Shown piece by piece: positions 38,693 through 39,745 of a stretch of DNA of 41,131 nucleotides. A program made the position numbers and the translations under genes. The stretch's first letter is position 1; every line of letters starts with the position of its first letter. The DNA is from Gemmatimonadota bacterium (GTDB lineage Bacteria > 4572-55 > J002): contig RFFQ01000015.1 in NCBI GenBank assembly GCA_003697105.1, positions 1-41,131 on the forward strand. Reading direction: 5' to 3'. The notes under the pieces are model-generated. The model was not told where the DNA came from. It searched no databases and saw only the letters and a program-made list of their open reading frames with translations.

Positions 38693-39745
38693 CTACTTTT
38701 CCTCATCCATCTGCTCAAATTTCGCCAACTGTTTTTTATAATAGTCATCATCCGGTTTGATGTGAATGGCTTTGTTGATAACGGCAATCGCGCTGGCTTT
38801 ATCCCCTAATTTATAATGCACTTCTGCTACGGTATCCAAAATCATTGCCTGATCTTCTGAACCCACTTCGGACAGCTCCGCCGCTTTTTGGGCATACGCC
38901 AGTGCTTTTTCAAGTTTCATTTCCAGTTCGGTCATACGCCAAGCGAATGAATTCAACGCTTGGGGGTCGTCGTTAAACCGGTCTGCCATAGCTTCCAGCA
39001 CCGCGGCTTCTTTTTCGGGTTCTTCCTGACGGGCGTAGTAACGCGCCAGAGCCGTATAGCTTTGTTGGGCAATGTCATCATTGGCGGTTTTTGCCAGTTG
39101 TTCCAATCGGGCAGTTTTGCCGCTGGTCTCCAGTTCAATTGTACCAATGTAATAGGCACTTGTCTGGTGCTCTGCTGTATGGAAGGGTGTGGTTTGAATT
39201 ACTGTTTTCAAGTATGGGAGTGCCGCTTCCTGGTCCCCTCGGTAAAAATATTTTTGACCGATCTGAAACTTCAATTCCGCACTCTGGGGATCCGCTTTGA
39301 GTTTCTCTTTCAGATAAGCCAACGTTCCAATGCCATTGAGATAATCGTTCAATGTTTTCAGATACGCGTCTTTCGTGGAAAAGCCCATAATCCGGTCGAT
39401 TTCCTCCTTGCTGGAGACATCCACCAAAATAACCTGCGGGATCGATTTAATCCCAAATGTTTTCACAAGTGCCTTGTTTTCTGGATGATCGATATTATAC
39501 TGCCCGCTGACTACAATCGAATTTACGGAACTGACCTCATCGGATTTGAATACAGCGGCATCCAGCCGCTTGCAGGGAACTCACCAGTCAGCATAAAAAT
39601 CGACCAACACCATCGATTTATTTTGGGCTTTCGCCATGTCAATCAACTCATCCAGTGATTTGCCCTTCTGAAAATCCAACGCGGCAAATGCGCTAGAGAC
39701 CCCCATCCACAAGGTCAGTGCGATAACACTAAAAATCAGACGCAT
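38693..39745 (-). CDS. Exported thioredoxin-fold plus TPR selenoprotein (UxxC, Sec at residue 55, 350 aa)
   Basis: ATG at 39745 with AGGAGG RBS reads MRLIFSVIALTLWMGVSSAFAALDFQKGKSLDELIDMAKAQNKSMVLVDFYADW-TGA-VPCKRLD and continues in frame into the 257-aa ORF (FGIKSIPQVILVD cis-Pro loop, then TPRs). A SECIS-like hairpin follows the TGA. Confidence 0.88.
39551..39574 (-). promoter_or_regulatory. Candidate bacterial SECIS element
   Basis: After the UGA (39581-39583): UGC-A-AGCGGC-[UGGAU]-GCCGCU-GUA. The apical loop starts after a 16-nt spacer and has G at its second position. Confidence 0.72.

Follow-up and report, generated by a model that had tools for sequence, protein, structure and literature searches.

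The 41,131-nucleotide (nt) contig RFFQ01000015.1 of the Gemmatimonadota bacterium assembly GCA_003697105.1, analyzed over its full length and called the window below, carries on its reverse strand a gene that conventional annotation breaks in two and that very probably encodes an exported protein with selenocysteine (Sec, U). Direct reading and translation of the sequence give a single frame of 350 amino acids (aa) at 38693-39745 (-), with one in-frame TGA at 39581-39583 (-), which is codon 55. The frame opens with an ATG at 39745-39743, placed 6 nt behind a Shine-Dalgarno-like AGGAGG (39752-39757, -), and ends at a TAG (38693-38695, -). By inspection, its first 21 residues (39683-39745, -) have the composition of a peptide removed by signal peptidase I: a single basic residue is followed by a hydrophobic stretch, and the predicted cut falls between A-F-A and a further A. 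Behind this segment lie a thioredoxin-fold domain resembling the gamma domain of DsbD (residues 41-132; 39350-39625, -) and an all-helical tetratricopeptide repeat (TPR) domain (residues ~142-350; 38696-39322, -). When the TGA is translated as U, codon 55 sits within D-F-Y-A-D-W-U-V-P-C and takes the first position of the redox motif U-V-P-C, in which the resolving cysteine is codon 58 (TGC; 39572-39574, -), and Pro103 (39437-39439, -) occupies the position of the cis-proline loop.

Under translation table 11 this frame falls apart into a 54-aa open reading frame (ORF; 39581-39745) and a 257-aa ORF (38693-39466) that begins at an internal GTG, and the protein-database entry for the gene (P0002) consists of the 257-aa piece only. 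Such a GTG start would fall inside the thioredoxin fold, just 5' of the cis-proline loop. The TGA is carried without variant by the contig sets of two public runs, X1 and X2, which show 0 differences over 39300-39850 at a depth of ~23-24 but may represent the source sample of the assembly and so do not count as independent reads. The public runs that contain the stretch bear the label hot springs metagenome. A preliminary description of the window, made from its letters, had placed the ATG, the AGGAGG, the signal peptide and the single TGA in a 350-aa frame, had seen the TGA at the first cysteine position of a thioredoxin motif with an intact resolving cysteine and cis-proline loop, and had predicted that standard annotation would split the gene; every checkable detail proved correct, including U55, C58, P103 and the truncated database entry.

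Domain searches and structure prediction place the N-terminal half of the protein in the thioredoxin fold. Specifically, Pfam matches PF00085 over residues 41-132 with 47.7 bits (cut-off 23.5), PF13098 (Thioredoxin_2) with 41.5 bits (cut-off 27) and PF13899 (Thioredoxin_7) with 34.8 bits, and the repeat models TPR_14, TPR_2, TPR_12, TPR_8 and TPR_19 exceed their cut-offs across residues ~142-341, a region for which Foldseek returns designed consensus TPR proteins as well as YbbN. The repeat domain has conserved residues of its own that are specific to the family, namely N265, W269, E273, L303, D304, T305, A307 and E308, all invariant columns of a 14-row alignment of relatives (A1). An AlphaFold2 model built on this alignment reaches a predicted local distance difference test score (pLDDT) of 92.8 and a predicted template modeling score (pTM) of 0.83, with residues 1-20 at pLDDT 46-50 and the helices of residues 142-349 at 95-99. 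In the model, strand 45-51 precedes U55 and helix 56-66 follows it, and Pro103, invariant in A1, directly precedes strand 104-109. The protein shows the features by which a thiol:disulfide oxidoreductase of this fold is recognized, as its domain scores above cut-off, its redox motif opens the first long helix and its cis-proline is invariant; Sec takes the first position of the UxxC motif of its PF13098 domain. A profile search of the PDB returned 2kuc_A, a 'putative disulphide-isomerase', at 3e-30 and the DsbD gamma domain at ~1e-19; in NCBIfam, neither the window protein nor its orthologues in two genomes of the same class, G001 and G002, bring any model above its cut-off. The N-terminus suggests that the window protein is exported, and a crude in-house rule detects export signals at 83 of the 93 family loci with complete N-termini, 46 of them lipobox-like and 37 hydrophobic; in most of the ten loci that fail this rule, a like pattern stands after a start codon other than ATG.

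That the TGA is a codon rather than a lesion is indicated by its position in relatives. Only two genomes of the same class were compared, and both carry an orthologue of the same architecture at 32% identity, with TGA at the same codon in G001 and TGC in G002; the lineage is very sparsely sampled, and the other listed relatives of the source genome (G000) are related to it at the domain level only. A wider survey combined 23 loci from a pattern scan of species-representative genomes with metagenome contigs, taken as the best 80 of 226 relatives. Because the search was seeded with C-terminal peptide patterns from a six-row alignment (A2), the choice of loci is independent of codon 55. Together with the window and its two same-class relatives, the 103 scanned loci make 106, at which the codon-55 column was read with a hidden Markov model (HMM) of the family. 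A family ORF is present at 105 of them, with TGA at 76, TGT at 13, TGC at 13 and no such column at 3; the remaining locus, L064, was rejected as an ordinary thioredoxin. The species-representative loci by themselves give 13 TGA, six cysteine codons, three loci lacking the column and the one non-family case. Genomes at the TGA loci are titled Neomarinimicrobiota, Fibrobacteraceae, Latescibacterota, Eisenbacteria and Acidobacteriota, and in the relatives aligned in A1 the sequence is conserved on both sides of the codon. Some loci are near-copies of one another, with 68 of the 76 Sec rows and 23 of the 26 Cys rows unique downstream of the codon.

The protein collection contains many cysteine forms of full length (350-410 aa), and some of its 288-aa entries start directly after the redox motif. 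A FastTree phylogeny of 102 rows, computed with the codon-55 column excluded, requires at least 10 changes of the Sec/Cys label, at least 7 of them forced by well-supported branches, compared with 23 for shuffled labels. On this unrooted tree, Sec forms occur in every major clade with Cys clades nested among them; the window gene forms a long branch near its two same-class relatives. The comparison shows codon 55 to be a site of conserved UGA recoding, at the attacking position of a U-x-x-C motif.

The source genome, represented by 199 contigs at 96.9% completeness, encodes the machinery that such recoding requires. Its tRNA-Sec (selC) scores 63 bits, above the Rfam cut-off, and is called by ARAGORN as tRNA-SeC with anticodon TCA; selA (585 bits) and selB (384 bits) are both free of internal stops, and selD reaches 356 bits, so that all four components lie above their curated cut-offs. 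The selD gene (C12:941-1864 (-), identical with L018 830-1996 (-)) is itself of the Sec type, with one in-frame TGA that falls within the glycine-rich active-site stretch near its N-terminus. Within the window, TGA serves as an ordinary stop that ends 6 of the 20 long ORFs. As TGA terminates normal ORFs and interrupts neither selA nor selB, its occurrence at codon 55 points to a site-specific event and not to a changed genetic code. Among 21 other genomes that carry the family, selA lies above its cut-off in all 21 (14 with the Sec form and 7 with the Cys form), compared with 1 of 14 in a control set of well-known genomes. Further thioredoxin-like matches with an in-frame TGA were seen in the source genome (C49:31499-31777 (+)) and in the distant genomes G004 (C49:31036-31389) and G014 (C28:17585-17893), and these may be additional thioredoxin-fold selenoproteins.

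Immediately behind the UGA, the coding sequence can form a hairpin resembling a bacterial Sec insertion sequence (SECIS; 39551-39574, -), supported by folding and covariation. Its G-containing 5-nt loop UGGAU (39564-39560) is closed by an upper stem of five G+C pairs, below which come a single bulged base on the 5' side and a lower stem of 4 bp; the stem begins 7 nt and the loop 17 nt past the UGA, and the codon of the resolving cysteine (columns 10-12 of alignment A3) forms part of the lower stem, at the base of the structure. In the window, the 45 nt past the UGA fold to -13.1 kcal/mol. Over the same 45 nt, mean fold energy is -9.84 kcal/mol for the 68 unique Sec rows and -6.80 for the 23 unique Cys rows (Mann-Whitney p = 0.008), and the fold z-scores of the two groups also differ (p = 0.002; G+C content 0.46 versus 0.43), with p-values that are overstated to the extent that related sequences are not independent. 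Alignment A3, which comprises the 51 unique Sec rows with a common loop position, fits one structure with 80.8% of cells paired, and 7 of its 9 pairs vary on both sides; one pair, for example, is C-G in 24 rows, A-U in 9 and U-A in 9, and another is U-A in 23, G-C in 18 and G-U in 6. Its covariation score of 0.324 exceeds the 0.138 obtained on shuffling (0 of 500 shuffles reach the observed value), and sliding the structure by 1-3 columns lowers pairing to 20-46%. When this structure is imposed on the 23 Cys rows, 56.5% of cells are paired. Specifically, the five upper-stem pairs form in 49, 49, 47, 42 and 32 of the 51 Sec rows, as opposed to 14, 7, 10, 15 and 7 of the 23 Cys rows.

In light of these results, it is very likely that the gene is a genuine selenoprotein gene. 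The preliminary description had proposed a Sec-containing UxxC protein of the thioredoxin fold and had named several points on which the proposal would turn, and each of them came out in its favor. The genome contains tRNA-Sec, selA, selB and selD; the assembled reads of X1 and X2 show TGA where TGC or TGT might have exposed an error; the aligned codon in the 105 family loci is TGA in 76, TGY in 26 and absent in 3, with conserved flanks; the TGA is not confined to this genome, being found at 75 further loci; and a conserved, covarying hairpin follows the UGA in 51 Sec rows.

Several known proteins share parts of this arrangement. The gamma domain of Escherichia coli DsbD (1uc7, 1vrs, 2fwe-2fwh, 4ip1) is the best match to residues ~25-135, with Foldseek giving a template modeling (TM) score, by target, of 0.76-0.79, a root-mean-square deviation (rmsd) of ~2.6 and 26-28% identity. 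The NCBIfam model for DsbD scores 62.6 bits over the gamma region, both proteins would act in the periplasm, and the redox motif lies at the same place. DsbD gamma, however, forms the C-terminal end of a membrane protein and uses cysteine, whereas the domain described here is free-standing behind a signal peptide, carries Sec and is fused to TPRs; the 62.6 bits are confined to the gamma region and fall far below the cut-off of 330 for full-length DsbD, to which the window protein does not belong.

The order of a thioredoxin domain followed by TPRs recalls CnoX/YbbN of E. coli and Salmonella (3qou, 3qdn), a cytoplasmic protein that acts as a 'chaperedoxin', and 3qou is the top whole-length Foldseek match (E = 5e-7, 329 aligned columns). 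The superposition is nevertheless poor (TM 0.24-0.29, rmsd 22.8, 15% identity), with the domains oriented differently, which argues for the same architecture and not the same family. In addition, the YbbN-type TPR_20 model reaches 20.1 bits against a cut-off of 25, so the window protein lies outside that family at this level, and it differs by its signal peptide and its Sec. A relative with the Cys form, P0006, bears the source annotation 'thioredoxin-like negative regulator of GroEL'. The curated selenoproteins TsoB and NF041199 likewise join a domain of the DsbD-gamma/Thioredoxin_7 type to a second domain; their models give 56.4 bits for P0001 (TsoB, cut-off 805) and 23.8 bits for the G002 orthologue (NF041199, cut-off 300). 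Their partner domain is PDZ or rhodanese and not TPR, and the text of a 2026 inventory places their Sec at CxxU and UxxxxU.

At the level of the domain, the protein falls into a class that has been described before. Under the name 'thiol:disulfide interchange protein', UxxC proteins of PF13098/cd02953 appear as a predicted selenoprotein class in the main texts of PMC13188914, PMC9312934, PMC1794560 (Zhang et al. 2006) and PMC2398784 (the GOS survey), and the text of the Sargasso paper lists a 'thiol-disulfide isomerase-like protein'. This class (representative WP_011366075.1) resembles the window protein in its thioredoxin fold, in Sec at the first position of U-x-x-C and in its many Cys homologues, the domain here being DsbD-gamma-like; the likeness may be one of the domain only. 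Neither 'TPR' nor 'tetratricopeptide' occurs in the main texts of these four inventories (0 occurrences each) or in that of the Sargasso paper, none of which names a combination of thioredoxin and TPR, and full-text literature searches for a thioredoxin-TPR selenoprotein found nothing relevant. Members of the family may nevertheless be counted inside such domain-level classes. The preliminary description had regarded UxxC proteins of the thioredoxin fold as a known selenoprotein class, which the main texts of PMC1794560, PMC9312934 and PMC13188914 bear out, and had asked whether this architecture was already catalogued. The answer is divided: the UxxC class is catalogued as a domain, whereas the thioredoxin-TPR architecture goes unmentioned in the main texts searched.

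The available data are compatible with a model in which SelB, together with GTP and Sec-tRNA(Sec), would bind the mRNA hairpin during translation, leading to insertion of Sec at codon 55. The signal peptide would then take the protein across the inner membrane and be cut after residue 21. In the periplasm, the selenolate of U55 may attack disulfides, or sulfenic acids, of envelope proteins, with C58 resolving the mixed selenenylsulfide, and the oxidized U-C pair would be reduced again by a three-domain DsbD encoded elsewhere in the genome. The C-terminal TPR solenoid, finally, may hold the client, which would make the protein a periplasmic, Sec-based counterpart of the thioredoxin-TPR 'chaperedoxin'. 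The source genome does encode a three-domain DsbD (DsbD_N + DsbD_TM + Thioredoxin_7) on C22, plus a second DsbD_TM protein, so a route for reducing power into the periplasm exists. At 36 of 105 family loci (for example L085:25-1131 (+)), the adjacent same-strand gene specifies a prolyl isomerase in which a cyclophilin and an FKBP are fused behind a hydrophobic N-terminal segment, as seen in flanks of 1.2-1.5 kb, and such a neighbor fits a role in envelope protein folding. The favored interpretation, to which a probability of roughly 0.85 is attached, takes 38693-39745 (-) as a single intact gene whose product is an exported thioredoxin-TPR selenoprotein of 350 residues, probably operating by the redox mechanism just proposed.

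A number of observations weigh against this interpretation, most of them concerning the hairpin. Taken by itself, the hairpin of the window is not significant relative to shuffled sequences (z = -0.5 over 71 nt, z = -0.9 over 45 nt), so the case for it is a comparative one. Within that comparison, the Cys rows too fit the structure better than their shuffled versions do (56.5% versus 47.9% paired, 0 of 500; covariation 0.260 versus 0.175), which means that part of the pairing, especially in the lower stem, stems from conserved codons, and the kinship among the sequences adds to the apparent significance. One Cys form, L132 (TGC, 1246-1248), retains the full SECIS-like hairpin of its Sec relatives and may be a recent Sec-to-Cys replacement. 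Furthermore, 17 of the 68 unique Sec rows have other hairpins, of two types, with loops 21-23 nt past the UGA (for example L056, L063, L116 and L121), and the same-class relative G001 has yet another. Hairpins at these other offsets imply several SECIS solutions and no single family-wide SECIS; because the shift of the loop is not a multiple of three, the element appears to have been rebuilt in different codons in different branches. An Rfam search of 39350-39800 at E <= 10 gave no meaningful match, and a C/D-box snoRNA hit at E = 3.6 was rejected as chance. Beyond the hairpin, the possible common origin of X1, X2 and the assembly limits what the reads add; no sigma-70-like promoter was picked up ahead of the gene by a consensus scan, for which reason a TTGACA-like hexamer present there is not claimed; and the prolyl-isomerase neighbor is absent in the window, in G001 and in G002. 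All steps of the model beyond Sec insertion, among them the direction of the redox reaction, the dependence on DsbD and the binding of clients by the TPRs, are proposals deduced by analogy.

Two other functions of the same selenoprotein were weighed. It is conceivable, if unlikely, that it acts mainly as an oxidant, in the manner of a DsbA-like disulfide donor, or as a periplasmic scavenger of peroxide or of oxidized sulfur or selenium species, and not as a reductase fed by DsbD. Sec in the attacking position is also found in the DsbA-like and peroxiredoxin-like selenoproteins listed in the inventories' main texts; fold and sequence are nevertheless closest to the reductive DsbD gamma domain and not to DsbA or peroxiredoxins, and the three-domain DsbD is present. 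A lesser chance still attaches to a narrower job in cytochrome c maturation or another single pathway, in which the TPRs would hold an apoprotein while U-x-x-C reduces its cysteines. TPR proteins do serve as apocytochrome chaperones in system I, and the protein has a weak NCBIfam similarity to ResA and TlpA (E = 0.0016-0.0044, far under the cut-offs), but the thioredoxin domain is closest to DsbD gamma and not to CcmG or ResA, no cytochrome-maturation gene adjoins the gene in the window or figures among the commonest conserved neighbors at the 105 loci, and the most frequent neighbors are prolyl isomerases.

Explanations that dispense with Sec fare much worse. Reading of the UGA with another residue, whether by near-cognate tryptophan or cysteine insertion or by a lineage-specific reassignment of TGA, is very improbable given that TGA ends long ORFs in the window and is missing from the interior of selA and selB, that the aligned residue in relatives is cysteine, the standard partner of Sec, that selA is present in 14 of the 14 other TGA-form genomes tested, and that a SECIS-like hairpin stands at the usual place. 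A recent nonsense mutation or an assembly error, leaving a pseudogene or at most the 257-aa TPR fragment, would accord with the split frame under table 11, the truncated database entry and the insignificance of the window hairpin by itself, but is largely refuted and hardly credible in view of the TGA at the same codon in 75 other loci from several phyla with conserved flanks, including an orthologue from the same class at only 32% identity, the covarying hairpin, the full Sec machinery, the two contig sets without a variant, and the beginning of the GTG product inside the thioredoxin fold.

In its immediate surroundings, the proposed selenoprotein gene stands alone: an unrelated TPR protein and a methyltransferase are encoded upstream, and a TraB/GumN gene runs toward it from downstream. 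Between these convergent genes lies a terminator-like hairpin (38605-38634, -), a weak and purely descriptive point, with a 7-bp G+C-rich stem, a 10-nt loop and a run of six T; with an A run on one side and a T run on the other, it has the look of a bidirectional terminator, and it was missed by a terminator scan limited to loops of 3-8 nt. Elsewhere in the window, a 523-aa ORF with an N-terminal hydrophobic segment (35361-36932, -) has no Pfam match at E <= 0.001.

Sequence comparison assigns the gene to a large family of thioredoxin-TPR proteins, exported or of the lipoprotein kind, in which Sec is the majority form among the DNA loci sampled. A family profile run against 1.84 billion representatives retrieves 2,755 proteins at E <= 1e-30; at 1e-10 it retrieves 47,109, a number that includes generic thioredoxin and TPR proteins. 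The best 150 representatives comprise 104 with CxxC, two with WxxC, one each with SxxC and AxxC, and 42 without the redox column. In most of these 42 the first residue is M, V or L and lies only a few positions past the motif, as expected of gene calls restarted behind a TGA, and two are long multi-domain proteins whose alignment may be at fault. Long forms such as P0068 (632 aa), P0105 (767 aa), P0122, P0146, P0148 and others have 280-370 extra residues or several matched stretches, and they may be fusions, tandem copies or run-through gene calls. A broader proposal is offered tentatively, with the odds leaning against its holding in every part: that these proteins constitute a distinct, very large and uncatalogued family (at least 2,755 clusters at 50% identity, E <= 1e-30) in which Sec is the majority and probably ancestral state, that the SECIS was rebuilt several times within the codons behind the active site, and that the family serves as a selenium-dependent periplasmic 'chaperedoxin' which works with prolyl isomerases in envelope folding across phyla related to Fibrobacterota, Chlorobiota and Bacteroidota as well as in Acidobacteriota.

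UxxC selenoproteins of the thioredoxin fold have been known since 2005-2008, and the gene introduces no new principle; the main practical value of these findings lies in correcting a systematic annotation error. The whole family is systematically shortened by annotation, and the database entry for the window gene lacks the catalytic domain. Consequently, metabolic and functional inferences overlook an exported redox enzyme in Marinimicrobia-like and related uncultured phyla and set the selenium dependence of these phyla too low. The alternative hairpins and the switches between Sec and Cys, of which the tree requires at least 10, furthermore offer a natural series in which to follow how a SECIS is constructed inside conserved codons. 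If the proposed mechanism is true, these bacteria would possess a selenium-based disulfide reductase or isomerase of the cell envelope with a client-binding domain of its own, a periplasmic analogue of the cytoplasmic chaperedoxin.

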